Source of the DNA: Minisyncoccia bacterium
GTDB lineage: Bacteria > Patescibacteriota > Minisyncoccia > UBA6257 > JAAZHW01
Reading direction: 5' to 3'
DNA: 64,000 nucleotides
Assembly: GCA_049720475.1 (NCBI GenBank)
Contig: JBNASH010000036.1
Span: forward strand, 1,339 to 65,338
Positions 41,148 through 57,691 of the stretch are shown in pieces. The translations under genes and the position numbers were made by a program. The stretch's first letter is position 1. The number at the start of each line of letters is the position of its first letter. Below the pieces are notes generated by a model, which was not told where the DNA came from, made no database searches, and worked only from the letters and a program-made list of their open reading frames with translations.

Positions 41148-41220
41148 TTGCGGGGTCGTCTAATGGTAGGACGCCTGGCTCTGGACCAGGTAATCTTGGT
41201 TCGAATCCAAGCCCCGCAGC
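41148..41220 (+). tRNA. tRNA-Gln (anticodon CUG), exact ends uncertain by 1-2 nt
   Basis: D-stem cgtc/gacg, anticodon stem cctgg/ccagg with loop ctCTGga, T-arm cttgg-ttcgaat-ccaag, acceptor gcgggg/ccccgc. Confidence 0.6.
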
Positions 41221-41271
41221 AAAATTGTTCGCTTCAAACTCTAAATTTTTAGAAAAAATTATATTTCCTCA

Positions 41272-41303
41272 TCGGCGCTTCGCGCCGAAGCCCAGCCTGT
41301 TTT
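41272..41303 (+). terminator. GC hairpin (tcggcgc-ttc-gcgccga) followed by T-run, possible tRNA-Gln terminator
   Basis: 7-bp perfect GC stem, ttttt about 10 nt downstream. Confidence 0.3.
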
Positions 41304-41564
41304 TAACCCGTGGATTAAATTTTGGTAAGATGATAAAGAAAATTGGCGATAGGGTAATTTCTACAACCAGATTAGAAAATTTCAGTTTTCTCCCTTGCTC
41401 GAACAGAATAGAAAGGAAAAAGTTTCAGTAAAAGTAATTCTTGCCCCGTTCTCGCTTTTTTCATCTGTTTCAGGGGTCCGCCCCGCCGATTGTATTCTTT
41501 GCTTTCTCAAAAATTTTTGTTATCATTATAAGAGATTAAGAAAGTTTTGTATCTATTACTTTGA

Positions 41565-41583
41565 TTGTAGTAATATACTACAA
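41565..41583 (+). promoter_or_regulatory. perfect 19-bp palindrome TTGTAGTAATATACTACAA overlapping the XRE start codon (candidate autoregulatory operator)
   Basis: Perfect dyad symmetry; overlaps putative -10 (taatat) and ATG at 41583. Confidence 0.45.
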
Positions 41584-41795
41584 TGAAGTTTAACAATAAA
41601 TCAACAATCGCCGAAAACATAAAGAAATATCGCCAGAAAATGGGTATTTCTCAAGATAGGCTTTCAAAATTAGCCGATGTCACCTATAACACGATTATTA
41701 AAATCGAATCGGGAGCAAACAAAAACCCGACTATTGAAACATTGGCAAAAATCGCCAAAGCGTTAGGCGTTGGAGTAGATGATTTAATAAAATAA
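41583..41795 (+). CDS. XRE-family (Cro/C1-type) helix-turn-helix transcriptional regulator
   Basis: 70 aa; MGISQDRLSKLADVTYNTIIKIESG...PTIETLAKIAKALGV typical HTH_3. Confidence 0.8.
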   Translation: MKFNNKSTIAENIKKYRQKMGISQDRLSKLADVTYNTIIKIESGANKNPTIETLAKIAKALGVGVDDLIK

Positions 41796-41817
41796 TAATT
41801 TTAGTTAATAATTTTTT

Positions 41818-42306
41818 ATGAAATTACCAACAAAAATAATTTTAACAAGCGGTATCGGAATGGGGTCAACGAAATTAAATGCATTCGATAATGCTTTATT
41901 AAATGCAGGAATAGGTAACTTTAATTTATTACAGACATCAAGTATTATACCTCCAAAAGCAAAAATTATTTATCTCACAAAAAGCAAGCAGGGGAAATTA
42001 TTACCTTCAATTGGGTCGGTGGTGCCAACAGTTTATTGTTATATCTTTGGAGAAAAAGTCGGAATAAGAATTACAGCTATTTTAGGATTGGGCATTCCTA
42101 AAAACTACAAAGAGCATAACGGGGTTATATTTGAATTTGCCGGAACTAATATTACAAAAGATAAGGCTAAAAAAACTTGTGGAAGAATGATTGAAGAGGC
42201 ATTTAATTCTAGAAACTTAGAAATAGAAAAAATTCAATTTATAGAGGCAGATTGTTTAGTAAAAAAGAAATATACTTGTGTAATCGTTGCTGCGCTATTA
42301 ATATAA
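41818..42306 (+). CDS. pdaD: pyruvoyl-dependent arginine decarboxylase proenzyme homolog (PvlArgDC/PdaD family)
   Basis: [27 protein letters not shown] closely resembles the Methanocaldococcus PdaD self-cleavage region ([27 protein letters not shown]) including the Ser-Ser processing site; 162 aa. Confidence 0.75.
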   Translation: [162 protein letters not shown]

Positions 42307-42319
42307 TTTAAACCAAATT

Positions 42320-43603
42320 ATGATTCTTTTAGTTAGTAAAAAAGATTATAAAAATCTAAATCCCAAGCAAGGGAAACTAATAATAAGTTATATAAAATTT
42401 GCTGTAGAGGAGACGCTTTTTTATTCAAAATTTAAAAATAAATTAGAAAATATCAATTACAGAAATTTTTTTGAATTTCCAATTACTTATGAATACGATT
42501 TGATAAACAATCCTTTCGCTTTTGTTGGTAAAAATAGCCAATTAGTTCAACTTGCATCTTCGGGAGGAACTTATGGAAAAAGAAAATTAATTTTTAGAAC
42601 AAACGAGGATATACAAAAAAGTGTAGAAACAGCGACTGCGATGTTTCTATGTGGAAAGATTAAATCAAAAGACAGAATTGCAATTTTACAACCCTTTGAT
42701 TTATGGAATATAGGACATATAGCTTTGTTAACCTTTAGAAGAATAGGTGCTTTAAGTGTACCCATAGGGCTTTCTATGGACAATGCGAGTATTTTAAATA
42801 TTTTGGCAACAACTAAATGCAATGTTATTTATGGTACGCCCTCCAAAGTAACGACAATAGCAGAGTTAAGTAAGAAAATAGGTCTAACATTAAAGATAGA
42901 TAAGGTATTTTGTGCTGGCGAACCAATTTTACAGAGTCATCGAGAATCTATTAAGAAAATATGGAATGCTGAAATTTATGGTATTTATGGCTCTGAAGAA
43001 ACTGATGGAATAGGAGCGGAATGCGATTCTCATTGTGGTTATCATATATTTGACAAAACCTTATTGATAGAAGTTTTAAATCCCGAAACATTATTACCCG
43101 CGGAAGAGAACAAAGGTGTATTAGTAGTTACAAAATTAGGATATTCTGGCACAATTTTAGTTCGCTATTTATTAGGAGATTTAGTGGAAATAACAAAAAA
43201 TCCTTGTGAGTGTGGGCGTAAAGAAATAAGAATTTTTCCTAGGGGAAGAATAAAAGAGGTTATTTGGCTTTATGATGGTAGAAAAATTTCTTTGCAATCA
43301 ATAGAAAATGCTTTGAATATGATTTTTTGTGAAGTTCCTCAATATCAGATTCTGGTTAAGAATACACTAAAAGGAAGTATTTTAAGATTTAAAATTTTAA
43401 TCAAAAATAATAATCTTTTAAAAAAGAAAAATGATTTTAAAAAGATAATAGCGAAATCTTCTCAAGACATAGAAGAAGGAATAAATAAGCGAGAAGTTAA
43501 ATTATCCATTGAATTATTTAAAGACCCTTCTCAGTTTATTTATACGGAGAGAGGTAAAATTCCAAAAATAATTTATGAAAAACATGAAGAACATAAAAGT
43601 TGA
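42320..43603 (+). CDS. PaaK / coenzyme F390 synthetase-like adenylate-forming ligase
   Basis: About 430 aa; SSGGTYGKRK at the position of the PaaK SSGTTGKP AMP-binding motif; YGSEET core motif region. Confidence 0.5.
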   Translation: MILLVSKKDYKNLNPKQGKLIISYIKFAVEETLFYSKFKNKLENINYRNFFEFPITYEYDLINNPFAFVGKNSQLVQLASSGGTYGKRKLIFRTNEDIQKSVETATAMFLCGKIKSKDRIAILQPFDLWNIGHIALLTFRRIGALSVPIGLSMDNASILNILATTKCNVIYGTPSKVTTIAELSKKIGLTLKIDKVFCAGEPILQSHRESIKKIWNAEIYGIYGSEETDGIGAECDSHCGYHIFDKTLLIEVLNPETLLPAEENKGVLVVTKLGYSGTILVRYLLGDLVEITKNPCECGRKEIRIFPRGRIKEVIWLYDGRKISLQSIENALNMIFCEVPQYQILVKNTLKGSILRFKILIKNNNLLKKKNDFKKIIAKSSQDIEEGINKREVKLSIELFKDPSQFIYTERGKIPKIIYEKHEEHKS

Positions 43604-44912
43604 TAGGGAGTATATAGAGATATACCCTATAAATTGGCGGAATGTAAGTCAGAAAATGGTAGACAAAATATTTTCCAGCCGCTCTTTTGATTTTATTAAA
43701 GAAATCAGCATCTATGTGCATATTCCTTTTTGCCCCACTATTTGTCCCTTTTGTAAATTTAATATTTCAAAATACGAACCTTTAATTTATCAAAAATATC
43801 TCGGTGTATTAAAAAAAGAAATATCCCTATTTAAAAATCATCCAGATTTACGAAACCGAATTGTTACTGCTATCTATTTTGGGGGTGGTACCGGATCTAT
43901 GTTAACTCCCACTGACATTGATGCGATTTTAAATCTAATAAGTAAAATTTTCAAATTAAGTGATAAAACAGAAATTACCGTAGAATGCCATCCAAGCACA
44001 GTTAATGCTAATAAATTAAAAGAATATAAAAAAGCAGGTGTTAATCGTGTGAGTTTGGGGATCCAATCTTTTCAAGATCAAAATTTAAGAAATATTGGGA
44101 GAAACCATTCAGCTGAACAAAATGAGAAACTTTTAAAAGATGCTCTAAAAATAGGATTTAATTGTGTAGCGATGGATTTAATGTATAGACTTCCAAATCA
44201 AGATTTTAAAAATTTAAAATTTGATCTTAATAAAATTAAAAAACTTTCTCCAGATGGAGTTAGTGTTTATAGCTTGGAACCGGAAGCAACTCCTTTAGAG
44301 AGAAAAACTTCAGAGATGCCACCTGAAGAGATTGATAGGGAGATGTTTTATTTTATTGGAGATTTTCTTGAAAATATTGGTTATCGCCGCTTTATGCAAC
44401 CTGATTTTTCAAAACCTGGCAAAGAATGTAAATATGTACTAAATGCTTGGAAAGCGCCACAACAATTAATGATTGGTTTTGGTGCTGGTGCTCATACGCA
44501 TTATTTTGGAAATCATGTATGGGCAAATGTTTATCCTATAAAAAGTTATATTGAGGCTCTAGAGAATGGATATTTTCCAGGAGTTATGGGTATTGAGGTT
44601 CCTCTAAAAGAATTGAAAGCGAAATATATGGTTTTAGGCGTTCGACATCTTTCAGTAGAAAAAGCAAGTTTTGAAAGAATGTTCAAAGAAAAAATTAATG
44701 ATATATATAGTGCAAAAATTAAAGAATTGAAAAAATTAGGATGGATAGTCGAAGAAAATGGTTGTTATAAAATAACCAGAGAGGGATTCTATTATATTGA
44801 TAACATATCAAAGACATTTTATACCAAGGCAAATAAAGGGGAAGGTCAACCTTGGCTTAAAGGTCTTTATAATTATATTCCTAAGAAATTTTACAAACCA
44901 TCAAAATTTTGA
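43575..44912 (+). CDS. HemN/HemW-family radical SAM enzyme (coproporphyrinogen oxidase-like; class C rSAM)
   Basis: YVHIPFCPTICPFCKF (CxxxCxxC in HemN context), GGGTGS, 445 aa with HemN C-terminal domain. Confidence 0.8.
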   Translation: MKNMKNIKVDREYIEIYPINWRNVSQKMVDKIFSSRSFDFIKEISIYVHIPFCPTICPFCKFNISKYEPLIYQKYLGVLKKEISLFKNHPDLRNRIVTAIYFGGGTGSMLTPTDIDAILNLISKIFKLSDKTEITVECHPSTVNANKLKEYKKAGVNRVSLGIQSFQDQNLRNIGRNHSAEQNEKLLKDALKIGFNCVAMDLMYRLPNQDFKNLKFDLNKIKKLSPDGVSVYSLEPEATPLERKTSEMPPEEIDREMFYFIGDFLENIGYRRFMQPDFSKPGKECKYVLNAWKAPQQLMIGFGAGAHTHYFGNHVWANVYPIKSYIEALENGYFPGVMGIEVPLKELKAKYMVLGVRHLSVEKASFERMFKEKINDIYSAKIKELKKLGWIVEENGCYKITREGFYYIDNISKTFYTKANKGEGQPWLKGLYNYIPKKFYKPSKF

Positions 44913-44984
44913 CAAAATTCATAAAATTTGTTAAGATTGTTAAAGAGTGAAAAACTTTTTAACAACTTAAATGGAGGTGAAATC

Positions 44985-45512
44985 ATGGAAAAAGAACAAA
45001 AAATCACAAAAGAAAAAGAGGTAATACTTGAAACTTTTTTAAAAGGGTGGAAAGAAACAAGGCAGCTCACACTGGATTGGATAGATGCGCTTTCATTAGA
45101 GCAATTGAATCAAGAATTGCCACGGCCAGGCCTTAATTCTTTCACAAAGCATATTTACGAAATGGGAGAAATTCAGAAAATATATGCAGCTGTACTTAAA
45201 GGAGAAGAACCAAAGATGGAAAAGGTGACAACCTTGACTTTTGAATCAGAAAAAGTTGTTGCCAAAACAAAAGAAGAATTAAAACAATTTCTTGGCGAAT
45301 GTGATGAAAACTTCTATGAGGCAGTAGGAAAGGTAAAAAATTGGGAAGAAAAAGTTTCGATTTTTGGAGTGGAAGTACCAAAATTTGGTGTTGTGGAACT
45401 GTTGATAAGACACGAAACCCTGCATCATGGACAATTTATCGCCTTCGGTTACATTTTAGGTATTCAATTCCCTCAAAGCTGGATAGATGCATGGGCCCTA
45501 CCCACTAAGTAA
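44985..45512 (+). CDS. DinB/YfiT-like four-helix-bundle protein (DinB_2 superfamily), start moved to ATG 44985 with strong RBS
   Basis: C-terminal HETLHHGQ matches DinB-family H-H-R/G-Q motif; RBS GGAGGTG 6 nt upstream of ATG 44985. Confidence 0.5.
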   Translation: MEKEQKITKEKEVILETFLKGWKETRQLTLDWIDALSLEQLNQELPRPGLNSFTKHIYEMGEIQKIYAAVLKGEEPKMEKVTTLTFESEKVVAKTKEELKQFLGECDENFYEAVGKVKNWEEKVSIFGVEVPKFGVVELLIRHETLHHGQFIAFGYILGIQFPQSWIDAWALPTK

Positions 45513-45574
45513 TTCAACCCAGACCTGGCTATGTCGCTAAACTACCTTTTTTCATAAGAAGGAGGTGAGGTAAG

Positions 45575-46333
45575 ATGGATAAGAAAACGATGTATTGGAA
45601 ACTTGCATGGGATACTTTTCATTTGCAAGTTTTCGACTATAAAGGTGATGTGAACAGAATAAATAACTGGGTTAAAAAAAGAGGTTACAACGTAACGAAC
45701 ATATTGGAAATAGGATGCGGAGCTGGTCGTTATCTCAAATTCTTGAAAAAGTTAGGTTATAAATGTGCGGGAGTAGACAAAGATGCTGATATTTTAGAAT
45801 ATGCAAGGCAAATAGTTTTACAGGAAGATAAGGATATCGAATTAGCAAAAAGAGATATTCTAAAAAGGATCCCATCAGTATTTAAAGGACGATTTGACTT
45901 GGTTCTTGGCAAACATCTTTCGTTGCCATTGGTTGATTTGGAGAAGGTCTTAGATTATGCAAAGAGAGCTTTAAATCCAAAAGGACCTAAACTCTTAGTA
46001 TTTGATTTTATGGTAGCTAATAAAAGTAACCTCGACAAAGAAATTCTCAGTATTGATAGTGCTGTAAAAGACCATCTCTTTTTAGTAAGACTAAATCAAA
46101 TGGAGCTAAGAAAAGAATTAAATGAATACAGATGGGAAGAATTTTACTTCATAGAGGATGCTCGAGAAGGAATTATTTTTACTAAGATCAACACGCGACA
46201 CTTATGGTTTCTTTCTCGTGATGAATTAAACAAATTGTTAGGGGATAAAGGTATAGAAATTGAAAACGAGTTGAGAGAAGATACAGGAATTAATAACTTA
46301 GAGGGGGTGACAATCTATGGGAAATTTAAATAA
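45575..46333 (+). CDS. class I SAM-dependent methyltransferase
   Basis: Motif I ILEIGCGAGRYL, motif post-I GVDKD; strong RBS AAGGAGGTGAGG. Confidence 0.7.
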   Translation: MDKKTMYWKLAWDTFHLQVFDYKGDVNRINNWVKKRGYNVTNILEIGCGAGRYLKFLKKLGYKCAGVDKDADILEYARQIVLQEDKDIELAKRDILKRIPSVFKGRFDLVLGKHLSLPLVDLEKVLDYAKRALNPKGPKLLVFDFMVANKSNLDKEILSIDSAVKDHLFLVRLNQMELRKELNEYRWEEFYFIEDAREGIIFTKINTRHLWFLSRDELNKLLGDKGIEIENELREDTGINNLEGVTIYGKFK

Positions 46334-46919
46334 CAAAATTTCTATTCTTATTGATAAAGAGCTGAAAACACTAGGCGACAAAGAATTTGCAAGGCGTAGA
46401 GATAGATTGATTGGTGAAGGAGTGAGGTCTTATGGAGTGGAAACCCAAGAGATTAGAAAAATTGCCAAGAAATACTTCAAGCAATTTCAAGAAAGAGAAA
46501 CCATAAGAGATTGGTTAGGAACCATCAAAGACTTGCTATCAACAAAAGTATTTGAGAATCAAATGGCTGGGATATTTCTTTTAGGTGCTTTTCTTAAAAG
46601 TGGTGGAAAGGTAAGTATTCCTGAGCTTGAAAGATTGATTATAAAATATCTTGATAATTGGGCAACCTGCGATACGATAAGTAGTGAAGTCGTGGCAAAA
46701 ATTTTAAGTGGATCCCCAAAAGAAATTAAAACTTTGTATGTTTGGGCAAGATCTAGAAATATTTGGTTAAAAAGAATTGCTTTGGTAACTATAGTGAAAC
46801 TCAAAAGTGAGATTGAAAATTGGCAAGAAATTGCTTCCAGGATATTTTCCTTTTCTAAAAAAGCAAAAGAGCCAATCATTAAAAAGGCAGTTCGTTGGTT
46901 AGAAAAAGAACTTTCTTAA
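46317..46919 (+). CDS. AlkD-like HEAT-repeat DNA alkylation repair glycosylase (DNA_alkylation family)
   Basis: About 200 aa helical repeats; NWATCD (Trp-x3-Asp catalytic spacing as in AlkD), later WARSRNIWLKR with conserved Arg/Trp; RBS GAGGGGGTG. Confidence 0.5.
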   Translation: MGNLNNKISILIDKELKTLGDKEFARRRDRLIGEGVRSYGVETQEIRKIAKKYFKQFQERETIRDWLGTIKDLLSTKVFENQMAGIFLLGAFLKSGGKVSIPELERLIIKYLDNWATCDTISSEVVAKILSGSPKEIKTLYVWARSRNIWLKRIALVTIVKLKSEIENWQEIASRIFSFSKKAKEPIIKKAVRWLEKELS

Positions 46920-46922
46920 TCA

Positions 46923-46955
46923 CGGGACGGAAGAACATTCTGTCCCGTTTTTTTT
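46923..46955 (+). terminator. rho-independent terminator
   Basis: cgggacgg-aagaacatt-ctgtcccg stem followed by 8 T. Confidence 0.7.
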
Positions 46956-46959
46956 ATTT

Positions 46960-47200
46960 TTGGATAATAAGTTTAGAATTTCTAAAATCGGCGGCGCGCC
47001 CGCGAAGTGGGCGAGAAGAAAAGCGAGGGTGAGGCGGAAATTTCTTTTTCCCGAACCCCTTTTCCTTCCCGCCCCGCCCGAGCGAATTTTTCAGAAATTA
47101 GCATCGGGATTTTCGCGGAAGAAAGTTCGGATTTTGTTCAAAAGAGACAGCCAACAAAAATCCACCAGAAGGCGGGTTTTTTAAATTCTATTGACAAATT
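46960..47200. other. GC-rich noncoding segment (local GC far above flanks) between terminator and promoter; candidate structured RNA or foreign remnant
   Basis: Runs such as ggcggcgcgcccgcgaagtgggcgag, ccttcccgccccgcccgagcg; hairpin cgccc-gcgaagt-gggcg; only Arg/Lys-rich spurious ORFs; TTGACA -35-like box at about 47190. Confidence 0.3.
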
Positions 47201-47264
47201 TTTTAAAAAATGAATATGTAATTAGATTTAAGATTTAAAAATCAAAAAAAAAGGAGGTGGGCGA

Positions 47265-47519
47265 ATGAGAAAAATTTTTAAAAAAGCGCAACATTTTCTT
47301 CAACTTCTGATCTTATTATTTTGGCCAGCAATTTTGGTGGGATTCCCCCTTCGAATTTTAATGATAAAAAAAGTAATTAATATTTCTGTTCTCGGAGCAG
47401 CAATAATTATTTTTCTGATACAGCTGGCCTGGCTTTTCTTTTACGCCGCCTGCAAGGCAGCGGGCGATGCTGATGAAAAATTAGAAGAAATTTTTTATAA
47501 AAAATTAAATAATTTTTAA
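47265..47519 (+). CDS. small membrane protein (84 aa), unknown function
   Basis: Two hydrophobic helices; strong RBS AAGGAGGTGGGCG 5 nt before ATG. Confidence 0.4.
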   Translation: MRKIFKKAQHFLQLLILLFWPAILVGFPLRILMIKKVINISVLGAAIIIFLIQLAWLFFYAACKAAGDADEKLEEIFYKKLNNF

Positions 47520-47547
47520 ATTGGGCTAGATGTCTAGCCCAATTTTT
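47520..47547 (+). terminator. rho-independent terminator
   Basis: ttgggctag-atgt-ctagcccaa perfect stem followed by ttttttat. Confidence 0.7.
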
Positions 47548-47693
47548 TATAAAATGAGAATAAAGATTTACTGTAAATAAGCCACCCAGCGAGCTATTCA
47601 ACAAAATTTTATACTAATTATTAGTATCGCTATTTTTAGAATAAAAAATTAAAATTAAATCGGCAATCCACTTTCCATTTATATTTTATTATA

Positions 47694-57301: not shown

Positions 57302-57691
57302 ATGGATACAATAGCTGATTTTCTTACTCAAATTAAAAATGCAATCGCGGTTAAAAAACCGTCTGTTACAGCACGTTTTTCTAAAATGAATTATGAAATT
57401 GCCCAGATTTTATTGAAAGAGGGATGGATTAATGATGTAAAAATAGTTGGTAAATCCCCCAAAAAGAATATTAGGATTGATTTAAAATATGATGAGAATG
57501 GAGTGTCGGCCATTCAAGAAATAAAAAGAATTAGCAAACCAGGTTGTCGTCGTTATATAAAAGCAAACCAATTAAAACCTGTTAAATCCGGTTATGGTCG
57601 CTATATTATTTCAACCCCTCGTGGTTTAATGACAAACGTTGAAGCAAAAAAGCACAATTTAGGAGGGGAAATAATTTGTGAGATATTCTAA
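57302..57691 (+). CDS. rpsH: 30S ribosomal protein S8
   Basis: DTIADFLTQIKNA..., 129 aa. Confidence 0.9.
   Translation: MDTIADFLTQIKNAIAVKKPSVTARFSKMNYEIAQILLKEGWINDVKIVGKSPKKNIRIDLKYDENGVSAIQEIKRISKPGCRRYIKANQLKPVKSGYGRYIISTPRGLMTNVEAKKHNLGGEIICEIF

Follow-up and report, generated by a model that had tools for sequence, protein, structure and literature searches.

The window, i.e. the whole 64,000-nucleotide stretch of DNA that was analysed, carries a seven-gene cassette (41583–46919) whose genes all read on the forward strand, as does the neighbouring tRNA-Gln(CTG) gene (41149–41220; ARAGORN and Rfam) that serves as its landmark. The first gene encodes an XRE-family HTH regulator (41583–41795; PF01381, 9e-17); it lacks a Shine–Dalgarno (SD) site (dG −0.1), as do the next two genes, which encode a pyruvoyl-dependent arginine decarboxylase of the PdaD type (41818–42306; PF01862, 5e-37; TIGR00286 at 123 bits, above the cutoff of 107) and a PaaK-like adenylate-forming ligase (42320–43603; PF00501). 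The ligase gene overlaps by 29 nt with that of a HemN-like radical SAM (rSAM) protein (43575–44912). There follow a DinB-family metalloenzyme (44985–45512; PF05163, 2e-10; RHETLHHGQ), a class I SAM-dependent methyltransferase (45575–46333; PF13649, 2e-12, with PF13847 and PF08241) and a 200-residue AlkD-family HEAT-like-repeat DNA glycosylase homologue (46317–46919; PF08713, 1.7e-30). An intrinsic terminator with an 11-bp stem and a T-run (46922–46958, forward strand) closes the operon. The last three genes form the promoter-distal transcription unit of this seven-gene cargo operon. The first-pass annotation had already named these three proteins and the HemN-like protein upstream, and the family matches uphold those calls. 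It had also drawn a four-gene block at 44928–47550, and these limits have to be redrawn: the DinB gene starts at the SD-led ATG at 44985 and not at the TTG at 44928, comparison with the loci of relatives gives a conserved unit of 41430–47151, and the proposed fourth gene falls outside it.

The copy of the element in the window occupies 41221–47151. It begins with a spacer (41221–41429) that fills the place of a large serine recombinase gene in relatives; blastn homology to the relative locus L002 ends at 41228 and picks up again at 41430. The left inverted-repeat arm (41305–41514) is degenerate and AT-enriched: in a local alignment it matches reverse-complemented 46956–47178 only weakly and with gaps, and its collinear homology to the left arm of L002 begins at 41430. 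The right arm (46984–47151) is intact, has 52% GC, matches both L002 arms at 89–91% and marks the right boundary of the element; the homology of L002 and L104 to the window stops there. The small membrane protein that had been counted as part of the unit (47265–47519, forward strand; two predicted TM segments by hydropathy) lies beyond this boundary. Its one homologue is from the same strain (98%) and it is absent from every other cassette locus; it is an unrelated strain-specific ORFan whose perfect SD would be coincidental.

The AlkD-like protein matches the AlkD sequence in the PDB at 1e-8, and its AF2 model (mean pLDDT 78.5) is most similar to AlkD (PDB code 5uuf; TM 0.70). Residues Trp115, Asp119, Arg153 and Trp194 are invariant, so that the catalytic residues (Trp/Asp/Trp plus Arg) which the first-pass annotation wished to see checked are conserved. 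This annotation correctly cited the precedents for a comparison with the yatakemycin and CC-1065 clusters, in which a HemN-like enzyme paired with a methyltransferase (C10P/C10Q) and AlkD-type self-resistance (YtkR2 and C10R5) are documented (PMC6050322, PMC8626424). The cassette shares with these systems the PF08713 fold, the Trp-Asp-Trp catalytic residues and the Arg, and an operon in which a HemN-like rSAM and a class I methyltransferase, as in the C10P + C10Q cyclopropanase, accompany the glycosylase. It differs in having seven genes rather than about 30, with no benzodipyrrole-building enzymes, in the DinB gene that sits between the rSAM and methyltransferase genes, in an AlkD-like protein without the last ∼40 residues of AlkD and in its host, a CPR bacterium and not Streptomyces.

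The rSAM protein scores 233.8 bits against the HemW model TIGR00539 (cutoff 205.4) and has the HemW-like CxxxCxxC-x-F and GGGT(G/P)S motifs, with CxxxCxxC intact. Unlike HemW, it has ∼38 additional residues at its N-terminus and ∼30 at its C-terminus and is encoded in a mobile operon, overlapping the ligase gene; L038 shows the housekeeping lepA–hemW arrangement. Alignment with Escherichia coli HemW shows that HNxxYW, the heme motif of HemW (PMC10114718), is replaced by YVLNAW in all of the cassette copies. Among solved structures its best match is NocN (1e-31), followed by HemN (1e-29). This likens the protein to the indolic-acid branch of nosiheptide and nocathiacin (NosL, NosI and NosN/NocN), as do Firmicute relatives in which a HemN-like protein is joined with a PaaK-like ligase and a NosL-like rSAM. 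We take NosL to be an MIA synthase, NosI an adenylating enzyme and NosN/NocN a class C rSAM methylase. What the CPR cassette lacks by comparison is a NosL-like gene, thiopeptide genes, a carrier protein and a precursor peptide. The top NCBIfam match of the ligase is the DVU_1553-family ligase, under the cutoff, and its PDB matches are PaaK and AjiA1 (1e-22 to 1e-18). In the DinB protein, Glu59, His143, Glu144 and His147 are invariant, Firmicute homologues included.

The order ligase, rSAM, DinB, methyltransferase, AlkD is held down to 39–68% identity, and a variant without the methyltransferase exists. Homologues of the ligase, HemN-like protein, DinB and methyltransferase also cluster in Enterococcus ikei, Lachnospiraceae and Dehalobacter (methyltransferase homologues are present in the L114, L115 and L116 clusters), together with NosL-like (TIGR04158, 2e-42 and 6e-59, both under the cutoff) and SPASM rSAM proteins. 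The Enterococcus cluster additionally has a MATE exporter and an AlkD-like gene, making it the one cluster of the three with an AlkD-like gene within 10 kb (22% identity), and in Ktedonosporobacter the rSAM homologue adjoins NRPS genes. The CPR cassette has no counterpart of the NosL-like, SPASM and exporter genes seen in these Firmicutes, and it may encode only part of such a pathway or one that serves another purpose. Gene order, Firmicute co-occurrence and conserved residues lend real support to the proposed link between the HemN-like protein, methyltransferase and AlkD-like protein; they do not demonstrate membership in a pathway of the yatakemycin/CC-1065 type.

Overall, the probable task of the cassette is to produce or process a small molecule that damages DNA and to mend the lesions it causes. 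Judged by family membership alone, the ligase would activate a carboxylic acid, to which agmatine made by PdaD might be coupled; the HemN-like protein, as a class-C-type rSAM, and the methyltransferase would transfer C1 units onto the activated acid, and DinB would carry out a metal-dependent step. The electrophilic product or substrate would damage DNA, and the AlkD-like protein would shield the carrier by excising the resulting purine adducts, whether cationic or bulky, with no base flipping. The HTH protein would regulate the cassette. We lean towards a mobile cassette with SD-led distal genes that combines DNA-damage chemistry with repair as the best overall explanation; the narrower proposal of a biosynthetic role with AlkD-type self-protection is advanced tentatively, as slightly short of an even chance.

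The same three distal genes could instead be a defence island, with DinB (as a thiol- or metal-dependent transferase), a TehB-like detoxifying methyltransferase and the AlkD-like protein (as an alkylpurine glycosylase) acting against external electrophiles or alkylating agents, and the upstream genes being ordinary metabolism that travels with them (agmatine/polyamine synthesis, a CoA ligase and a HemW-type chaperone). The trio is framed by a conserved promoter and a terminator of its own, in L092 nothing but the AlkD-like gene and part of the methyltransferase gene remains, the AlkD-like gene of an Oscillospiraceae locus (L048) lies beside a MerR-GyrI-like regulator and a MATE pump, and the rSAM score exceeds the HemW cutoff. 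Moreover, the trio is intact in relatives with upstream frameshifts (in the ligase and rSAM genes of L002, in Pvl of L007 and in the rSAM gene of L094), which suggests that it may be useful alone. However, DinB and the methyltransferase accompany HemN-like and ligase proteins in three biosynthetic-looking Firmicute clusters, all three with NosL-like and SPASM rSAM proteins and one with a MATE exporter; the ligase and rSAM genes overlap and adjoin DinB in every copy; and the rSAM lacks the HemW heme motif, heme not being expected to matter in CPR bacteria. A purely defensive role is rather unlikely.

Improbable, too, is a role in nucleic-acid modification, in which the cassette would make a modified base or nucleotide (e.g. 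with an agmatine- or C1-derived group) that the AlkD-like protein reads, inserts or removes on DNA. The elements are mobile, AlkD binds DNA without base flipping (PMC8626424) and the Firmicute clusters contain nucleoside 2-deoxyribosyltransferase-like, MazG-like, dihydroorotate/dihydropyrimidine-dehydrogenase-like and creatininase/ArfB-like proteins, but the CPR cassette has no nucleotide-handling enzyme, PADLOC defence models gave no match beyond a generic one for the HTH and a weak one for the methyltransferase, and IMG/VR viral contigs yielded no relatives.

The SD-led part of the preferred reading, the mobile damage-and-repair cassette, rests on pairing energies obtained by folding the 20 nt 5′ of each start against CACCUCCUUUC as the anti-SD, which may not be that of the host. 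The genes at 44985, 45575, 46317 and 47265 score −13.6, −16.9, −15.5 and −16.7 kcal/mol, respectively, compared with a mean of −0.29 kcal/mol (s.d. 2.16) for the remaining 68 genes of the window, bearing out the canonical sites reported for the four genes. GGAGGTG is found at 44973, 45561 and 47253 and GGGGGTG at 46303, all 5–7 nt 5′ of an ATG. The DinB site (44973–44979) lies 5 nt before its ATG and is conserved among the aligned copies; that of the methyltransferase (AGGAGGTGA, 45560–45568) is conserved also in L109, where the methyltransferase is only 49% identical; and the SD-like GGGGGTGA of the AlkD-like gene (46303–46310) lies within the methyltransferase coding sequence. None of the 68 native genes has an SD site, in agreement with the earlier remark that they almost never do. 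The window has one further low value (−10.7 kcal/mol, before the GTG at 57678), where the motif GGAGGGGAA lies within the preceding r-protein gene; from sequence reading and r-protein operon order we take it to encode the C-terminal Gly-Gly-Glu of ribosomal protein S8. By arithmetic, four SD-led genes of 72 would be consecutive by chance with a probability of 69/C(72,4), or ∼7e-5. Across nine cassette copies the HTH, Pvl, ligase and rSAM genes score +2.9 to −0.8 kcal/mol and the DinB, methyltransferase and AlkD genes −9 to −18 kcal/mol, with three weaker exceptions; the genes flanking these loci average −1.9 kcal/mol, with 3/73 at ≤ −10 kcal/mol, all three in L092. We infer that the strong sites of the three distal genes are held by selection across the cassette family, and it is highly probable that they are a selected feature of the cassette. 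With no SD before the native genes and no SD avoidance within native coding regions, host ribosomes may make no use of SD sites, and their conservation in the cassette would then lack an explanation.

Translation in Bacteroidetes is SD-independent, and a few genes, such as rpsU, retain a strong SD for regulation. The anti-SD motif has been lost in about half of Parcubacteria (PMC9297842). The window resembles these groups in that its native genes have no SD and a few specific genes have a strong, conserved one. It differs in that the SD-led genes of the cassette are accessory mobile cargo rather than a ribosomal protein gene and in that internal SD motifs are not avoided: SD avoidance within native coding regions was looked for in the window and none was seen.

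Other elements precede the distal genes. A σ70-like promoter (TTGACA-N17-TAAGAT with a TG extension; 44909–44937, forward strand, by consensus scan) has a −35 element that overlaps the rSAM stop codon, and its TTGACA and the T-A...T of the −10 element are invariant across the nine copies. Between the −10 element and the SD lies an inverted repeat with 12-bp arms (44936–44966, forward strand), a putative operator or 5′-UTR hairpin, for which 95% of cells are paired across the nine copies, with compensatory changes at two pairs; its RNA fold has −10.6 kcal/mol (z = −3.05) and the paired site occurs once in the window. The promoter and this palindrome or hairpin would thus both be placed ahead of DinB. 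The intercistronic block GACCTGGNTATGTC..AAACTNCC and the U-run after it (45522–45553, forward strand) form a small hairpin whose columns are invariant in nine copies, with GGGTA/TACCC becoming GGGCA/TGCCC in three lineages; it is possibly an attenuator or processing site. At the head of the operon a −10-like hexamer ends 3 nt 5′ of the HTH ATG and the upstream ...TACTACA-ATG is conserved, and the HTH mRNA is possibly leaderless.

The first-pass annotation explained the block as a horizontal acquisition of four genes (DinB, methyltransferase, AlkD-like protein and small membrane protein). Spelled out, this reading has a recent import from a donor outside the CPR that uses SD sites, for instance a Firmicute, with the SD sites as unameliorated relics. 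In the window SD sites are found only at this block, its GC3 is mildly raised (0.26–0.30 versus 0.245 ± 0.035) with a reproducible step at the rSAM/DinB junction, related clusters occur in Firmicutes, and among species-representative genomes the distant PF08713 relatives belong mainly to Clostridia and Bacteroidales. The supposedly higher GC did not survive analysis: the block GC of 0.348 is at the 89th percentile of equal-size windows (0.340 without the GC-rich repeat at 46984–47151), its genes (0.318–0.366) are inside the native range of 0.326 ± 0.033, and the visible step arises mostly because the upstream sub-block is AT-rich (0.300; 3rd percentile). Of three observations named beforehand as counting against acquisition (common SD motifs, ordinary composition and syntenic relatives), only ordinary composition was found. 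Nor were Firmicute or other non-CPR best matches seen: the closest AlkD-like relatives are all CPR (Minisyncoccia, Paceibacterota and Jorgensenbacteria; 52–100% identity) and the next match is at 30%, so a recent Firmicute donor is not supported. The trio is always joined to the SD-less upstream genes in unchanged order, the fourth gene is an ORFan beyond the repeat boundary, and SD sites that persist in copies at 49–63% protein identity are too old for unameliorated relics. Such an import is very unlikely.

Horizontal acquisition as such is upheld, although the unit is the seven-gene cassette, with a recombinase in relatives, and not the four-gene form. The element has travelled among Minisyncoccia/Paceibacteria that are only distantly related; that it exists as such and that CPR lineages have passed it among themselves is very probable. 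The same gene order is found at different genomic sites in L002, L004, L007, L091, L094, L104, L105 and L109, with at least six distinct flanking contexts among the loci. Nucleotide identity to the window is confined to the cassette (L002, 95%; L004, 84%; L007, 82%); L002 is 99–100% identical over 3 kb, while its tRNA-Gln gene is 88% identical and its flanks differ. Cassette proteins are 68–82% (L007) and 69–89% (L104) identical to those of the window and 63–100% identical between hosts overall, far above the backbone proteins (MurJ 37%, LepA 51%, RF2 49–50%, FtsE 55–59% and FtsX 37%; 49–59% for LepA, RF2 and FtsE together), which argues for transfer among CPR bacteria and not recently from Firmicutes. 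That this is a native vertical operon with SD sites for a special regulatory need, its mobility being an artefact of fragmentary metagenome assemblies, is scarcely credible and largely refuted: every carrier is CPR and the left flank of L104 is syntenic with the window (prfB, ftsE, ftsX and tRNA-Gln), but against this stand the varied contexts, the discordant identities, the near-identical 3 kb between differing flanks, and long inverted repeats with a recombinase in four lineages.

The inverted repeats that bracket the cassette operon are ∼170 nt long: 177 nt at 98% in L002, 168 nt at 97% in L104, about 250 nt at 91% in L004, at least 147 nt at 97% in L094 and at least 84 nt at 100% in L109. 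In L002 and L104 a recombinase gene separates the cassette from a tRNA-Gln gene, and L004 and L091 have one likewise between a tRNA-Ser gene and the cassette; the tRNA-Gln junction of the window is shared with L002 and L104. A tblastn search of the window with the L002 and L104 recombinases found no remnant, and with its recombinase lost and left arm decayed this copy is probably immobile. The elements resemble large-serine-recombinase islands at tRNA genes in having, in four lineages, a recombinase (Resolvase, Recombinase and Zn_ribbon) beside the tRNA 3′ end with cargo, a variable chromosomal context and discordant cargo and backbone identities. They differ from such islands in the absence of a recombinase from the window copy, in the long (150–250 nt) and almost identical inverted repeats on either side of the cargo and in a separate inverted-repeat pair that belongs to the recombinase gene; these paired repeats resemble invertible segments more than simple attL/attR sites.

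The genes at 41583-46919 form a seven-gene cassette, in the order XRE-type HTH protein, pyruvoyl arginine decarboxylase (PdaD), PaaK-like ligase, HemN-like radical SAM enzyme, DinB-family protein, methyltransferase and AlkD-like protein. On the homologue contigs all seven genes recur in this order, in a neighbourhood that varies by contig, and the stretch from the ligase to the AlkD-like gene keeps its order at identities as low as 39-68%. Close homologues of the AlkD-like protein number 62 (52-100% identity; the next match is at 30%), and those that are named all come from CPR bacteria, namely Minisyncoccia (the source itself), Paceibacterota and Jorgensenbacteria. When its alignment was searched against species-representative genomes, the matches listed were all at 25-37% identity, mostly from Lachnospiraceae and Bacteroidales, and there were no CPR loci among them. 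Inside the repeats that bound the cassette there are no pathway genes beyond these seven. PADLOC found no defence-system match other than a generic HTH and a weak methyltransferase match, and Rfam searches of the window and of the GC-rich repeat gave nothing but tRNAs and noise from miRNA-like hairpins below threshold. No account of this combination of genes was found in the literature searched; the cassette is an undescribed operon family with a logic related to that of AlkD-protected genotoxin clusters. Several copies have independent frameshifts: the ligase and radical SAM genes are split in L002 (6003-8595), a CPR contig with the cassette, and likewise in a separate assembly (L003), the decarboxylase gene is frameshifted in L007 (5493-5982), L008 and L009, and the radical SAM gene is frameshifted in L094 (2248-3577) and L095. 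The DinB, methyltransferase and AlkD-like genes are intact in every copy with frameshifted upstream genes.

Long inverted repeats enclose the cassette, with arms that are near-identical within each copy: 177 nt in L002 (arms 98%), 168 nt in L104 (97%), at least 147 nt in L094 (97%), at least 84 nt in L109 (100%) and ~250 nt in L004 (91%), all of these being CPR contigs. Of the two arms in the window, only the right one (46984-47151) is intact; the left one has degenerated and is enriched in AT. In four lineages a gene for a large serine recombinase (512 aa) separates the cassette from a tRNA gene, which is tRNA-Gln in L002 and L104 and tRNA-Ser in L004 and L091; the four recombinases share 50-87% mutual identity. 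The cassette of the window also lies next to tRNA-Gln, and other tRNA genes are found within ~2 kb in the CPR contigs L007, L105 and L109. The attachment-site evidence consists of the long inverted repeats only. The recombinase gene has a GC-rich inverted-repeat pair of its own (85-97 nt, 93-100%; 3332-3428/4927-5023 in L002 and 7293-7377/8861-8945 in L104), the outer arm of which overlaps the 3' end of tRNA-Gln, and each of these two elements thus consists of two adjacent repeat-flanked segments. The window shares its tRNA-Gln junction with L002 and L104, and with L104 it has the left flank (prfB, ftsE and ftsX) in common as well. The recombinase is absent from the window, where 209 unrelated bases occupy its place; the window copy is a derivative without it. 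About 50 nt past tRNA-Gln, in AT-rich surroundings, the window has a perfect GC hairpin at 41264-41290 (cggcgcttcgcgccg), which resembles the GC-rich repeat arms in general character and may be left over from the repeat on the recombinase side. The L091 contig (1-12057) is a perfect hairpin, with 3256-nt arms that are 100% complementary around a 5.5-kb cassette and a fold-back at the repeats; this reflects either a fold-back by the assembler at the inverted repeats or a population in which the cassette occurs in both orientations.

The nucleotide identity to the window by blastn is 95% for L002 (over 41430-47151), 84% for L004 and 82% for L007, and outside the cassette limits only tRNA-Gln matches in these comparisons. 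The cassette proteins of L007 and L104 are 68-82% and 69-89% identical to those of the window, respectively, and the backbone proteins on these contigs lie far below this (MurJ 37%, LepA 51%, RF2 49-50%, FtsE 55-59% and FtsX 37%). The window and L002 have 99-100% nucleotide identity over ~41730-44730, 88% identity between their tRNA-Gln genes and unrelated flanks. The excess of cassette over backbone identity, and the near-identity of the window and L002 despite their unrelated flanks, indicate recent transfer of the cassette among CPR lineages together with recombination between cassette variants. A scan of IMG/VR with the radical SAM alignment gave only HemW-like matches (23-32%) and no sign of phage carriage. 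The element is a serine-recombinase genomic island at tRNA genes that carries the undescribed operon family, and we consider the element and its transfer among CPR lineages to be highly probable. CPR bacteria have tiny genomes and, to our knowledge, few mobile elements or small-molecule pathways have been described for them; this element is clearly delimited, has moved recently between distant CPR lineages and combines a recombinase and tRNA targets with inverted repeats of unusual length.

The window has a GC content of 32.7% and ~72 genes, nearly all on the + strand. We scored the Shine-Dalgarno (SD) site of every gene by folding the 20 nt that precede its start codon against the tail of a generic 16S rRNA (CACCUCCUUUC). 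The first-pass annotation had reported strong SD sites on four consecutive genes, and the pairing energies bear this out, with -13.6 kcal/mol at 44985 (DinB), -16.9 at 45575 (methyltransferase), -15.5 at 46317 (AlkD-like) and -16.7 at 47265, against a mean of -0.29 kcal/mol (sd 2.16) for the remaining 68 genes, the leaders of which are plain AT-rich sequence. By our own arithmetic, the chance that four SD-led genes among 72 would stand consecutively is ~7e-5. The lone other low score (-10.7 kcal/mol) precedes a GTG at 57678, probably the start of rplF, and its motif, GGAGGGGAA, lies within the preceding gene, where from the sequence and the operon order it probably represents the conserved Gly-Gly-Glu codons at the C-terminus of S8; the site is thus probably no true exception. 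This sole native SD-like site lies within 57662-57680, with AGGAGGGG 11 nt upstream of the GTG. In 54 kb of native coding sequence, which gives little power, internal SD-like motifs are no scarcer than in synonymous-codon shuffles (GGAGG 48 seen versus 45.5 shuffled, observed/expected 1.05; AGGAGG 21 versus 15.5, 1.36), a result compatible with ribosomes that make no use of SD sequences. The anti-SD motif has been reported to be missing in about half of Parcubacteria (PMC9297842). There is no 16S rRNA gene in the window or the fetched loci (nine loci searched); the only rRNA genes there are 23S and 5S, in L094 and L095. The 23S gene of L095 (9162-14057) spans 3.5 kb (the model has 2925) and is followed by two LAGLIDADG homing-endonuclease ORFs and then by 5S; such insertions are typical for the rRNA genes of CPR bacteria.

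Two other claims about the four genes did not hold. The GC content of the block, described as visibly higher than that of its flanks, is only at the 89th percentile among windows of the same size, and part of it is contributed by the 52%-GC repeat at 46984-47151. The step arises mostly from the genes just upstream, which are unusually AT-rich (3rd percentile), and the GC3 of the first three genes is raised only mildly. The gene at 47265 does not belong with the other three: it encodes an 84-residue protein with two predicted TM helices, is missing from all other cassette copies and has homologues among 5.8 billion proteins in the same strain only. It is a strain-specific ORFan beyond the limits of the element. 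With a TTGACA at 47191, a perfect SD (AAAGGAGGTG) at 47252, the ORF at 47265-47519 and a terminator hairpin (attgggctagatgtctagcccaatttttt) at ~47518-47547, the stretch at 47152-47560 looks like a complete stand-alone expression unit just beyond the right repeat.

For the three genes inside the element, the SD pattern extends to other copies of the cassette. In nine distinct copies the first four cassette genes have no SD (+2.9 to -0.8 kcal/mol) and the DinB, methyltransferase and AlkD-like genes are strongly SD-led (-9 to -18 kcal/mol), with three weaker exceptions (the methyltransferase, -7.3, and AlkD-like, -8.9, genes of L007 and the AlkD-like gene of L109, -5.9). L109 keeps the pattern despite identities to the window of 49% for the methyltransferase and 63% for DinB, and among the orthologues of the trio a purine-rich complement to the anti-SD is conserved 5-9 nt before the start codon. 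Of the flanking genes in the cassette loci, 3/73 reach -10 kcal/mol, all of them in L092, the one locus that has just the AlkD-like gene and a partial methyltransferase gene left. The strong SDs there (starts 698, 3324 and 6937; -10.8 to -14.6) belong to a 248-residue protein, a methyltransferase-like protein and a radical SAM/SPASM pair; either this host uses SD sites more or these genes are another SD-led accessory island. In L112, a divergent variant without the methyltransferase, neither DinB nor AlkD has an SD.

Several further features meet at the point where the SD sites begin. An invariant promoter (TTGACA-N17-TAnnnT) has its -35 box overlapping the stop codon of the radical SAM gene, and it is accompanied by a conserved palindrome or hairpin with 12-bp arms and two compensatory pairs (44936-44966), in which one-sided changes, compared for an operator versus an RNA hairpin, are about evenly G·U and A·C. 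GC3 steps from 0.17-0.25 to 0.22-0.34 in the copies examined, except for the methyltransferase and AlkD-like genes of L109, and the boundary coincides with a recombination breakpoint between the window and L002. A second conserved element, a small hairpin with a U-run, lies between the DinB and methyltransferase genes, and a strong terminator follows the AlkD-like gene. The SD boundary, the promoter, the hairpins and the terminator point to the trio being a separately promoted, SD-dependent sub-operon within the cassette, and the SD sites are very probably a selected feature of the cassette. SD sites selected on a few cargo genes, with none on native genes, amount to a natural experiment on translation initiation, in which the question whether ribosomes of this kind remain capable of SD pairing becomes open to direct test. 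At the other end of the cassette, a conserved ...TA(T/A)ACTACA abuts the ATG of the HTH gene (41583 in the window; also in L002, L004, L091, L094 and L104), which points to a -10 box placed 3 nt ahead of the ATG and hence to a leaderless mRNA, as is also the case for some phage repressors.

The domain assignments of the first-pass annotation all hold, namely DinB, a class I methyltransferase, an AlkD-type protein (PF08713) and, upstream, a HemN-like radical SAM enzyme. The AlkD-like protein matches PF08713 at 1.7e-30 (106.8 bits) and solved AlkD chains at 1.1e-8. The catalytic residues of AlkD are Trp109, Asp113 and Trp187 (PMC8626424). Residues W115, D119, W194 and R153 of the cassette protein align with the WWDSVD, GW and LQR motifs of AlkD and are invariant in 28 cassette orthologues; equivalents of Trp109, Asp113, Trp187 and Arg148 are thus present. 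The AlkD residue numbers, including Arg148, were mapped by motif. The AF2 model (pLDDT 78.5, with low confidence for the N-terminal 40 residues) has as its top PDB match AlkD bound to a yatakemycin adduct (5uuf; TMq 0.70, probability 1.00, E 1.4e-3). The protein ends directly past the Trp187 equivalent, with ~40 C-terminal residues of AlkD missing.

The radical SAM protein scores 233.8 bits against the 205.4 cutoff of TIGR00539, the NCBI HemW model, and its cluster cysteines (C53, C57 and C60) are invariant. HNxxYW is a conserved HemW motif that has been proposed to bind heme (PMC10114718); it is missing in 7/7 cassette sequences, the HNLNYW of Escherichia coli HemW being replaced by YVLNAW (YVLNSW in L109). 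The protein also carries extra termini relative to HemW, and its best solved-structure match is the class C methylase NocN (1e-31), with HemN nearly equal (1e-29). The 'HemW' label is probably wrong for this protein, which is a caution for annotation. DinB matches PF05163 (2.1e-10) and PF12867 (2.9e-7), and its residues E59, H143, E144 and H147, which we infer to be metal-binding, are invariant across the CPR and Firmicute homologues.

A search with the radical SAM alignment led to related clusters outside the CPR. Candidatus Enterococcus ikei (L114, 600-16700) has in one tight cluster a ligase (29% identity, 4e-49), a HemN-like enzyme (39%), DinB (29%, 2e-16), a methyltransferase (25%) and an AlkD-like protein (22%), together with a NosL/MIA-synthase-like radical SAM enzyme, a SPASM radical SAM enzyme, a MATE exporter and a ClpA/B-like ATPase. 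The clusters in Lachnospiraceae (L115, 9200-20600) and Dehalobacter (L116, 9200-18900) have in common DinB, HemN-like, methyltransferase, ligase, NosL-like and SPASM radical SAM genes. Some Firmicute copies add DHO-dehydrogenase-like, creatininase-like, MATE, ClpA/B-like, MazG-like and AlkD-like genes, and the methyltransferase there is TehB-like. The Dehalobacter cluster adjoins two large serine recombinases and a transposase, and in Ktedonosporobacter (L113) the radical SAM homologue lies beside NRPS, P450 and MFS genes. The CPR cassette is without the NosL-like, SPASM and exporter genes of this apparently undescribed Firmicute family. The conserved CPR operon links a HemN-like radical SAM enzyme, a methyltransferase, DinB and an AlkD-type glycosylase, and three Firmicute clusters again combine the first three of these with the ligase, so that HemN-like enzyme, methyltransferase, DinB and ligase form a cross-phylum functional module of biosynthetic appearance. 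A further co-occurrence of ligase, HemN-like and AlkD genes, in L038, was rejected as coincidence, as Pfam places these genes in ordinary lepA-hemW and IOR-PaaK-ACT operons.

The cassette could well have a biosynthetic role with AlkD-type self-protection, a reading that we hold tentatively and in which the chemistry is drawn from family membership only; it would make or transform an electrophilic, DNA-reactive small molecule, from which the AlkD-like glycosylase would protect the carrier. A plausible alternative is that the trio is a module for defence only, given that it has its own promoter and is intact where the ligase and radical SAM (L002), decarboxylase (L007) or radical SAM (L094) genes are frameshifted. 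The explanation that we favour, by a little, combines the mobile element, the selected SD sites and biosynthesis with AlkD protection. A HemN-like enzyme and a methyltransferase build the cyclopropane warhead of CC-1065, and the AlkD homologues YtkR2 and C10R5 confer self-resistance (PMC6050322, PMC8626424), in agreement with the literature claims of the first-pass annotation. The parallel that it drew with the yatakemycin and CC-1065 clusters stands in part: as in those clusters, HemN-like, methyltransferase and AlkD-type genes are held together in one operon, here co-conserved in at least nine copies and found again in L114; unlike them, the cassette lacks benzodipyrrole assembly, amide-forming enzymes and GyrI-like/TatD-like resistance genes. 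With the rest of that pathway missing, the cassette falls outside the yatakemycin/CC-1065 cluster family.

A fuller version of the biosynthetic reading, which we think unlikely as a whole, is that CPR bacteria have in the cassette a minimal genotoxin kit that mobilises itself. In it, PdaD would supply agmatine, which the PaaK-like ligase would couple to an activated acid, giving a cationic compound that homes in on the minor groove of DNA; the HemN-like enzyme and the methyltransferase would add a reactive warhead derived from C1 units, in the manner of C10P/C10Q; DinB would finish or quench the product; and the AlkD-like glycosylase would be the immunity of the producer. The conserved SD sites would have the immunity-side genes translated preferentially by a pool of ribosomes with a free anti-SD, in hosts that otherwise ignore SD sites, and the kit would be part of a cross-phylum family of clusters, so far undescribed, with a larger, NosL-like-bearing form in Enterococcus, Lachnospiraceae and Dehalobacter. 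If a DNA-reactive compound is made, the cassette would be a compact, experimentally tractable relative of the logic seen in duocarmycin-type systems, and it might act as a weapon or a shield between episymbiont and host. Separately, an Oscillospiraceae MAG (L048, 7659-11817) groups a MATE pump gene on the - strand with the gene of a MerR regulator that has a GyrI-like domain and with AlkD-like and HemW-like genes (stop/start overlap), a set that looks like a drug-responsive resistance unit and like a pairing of AlkD and HemN-like genes independent of the CPR cassette.
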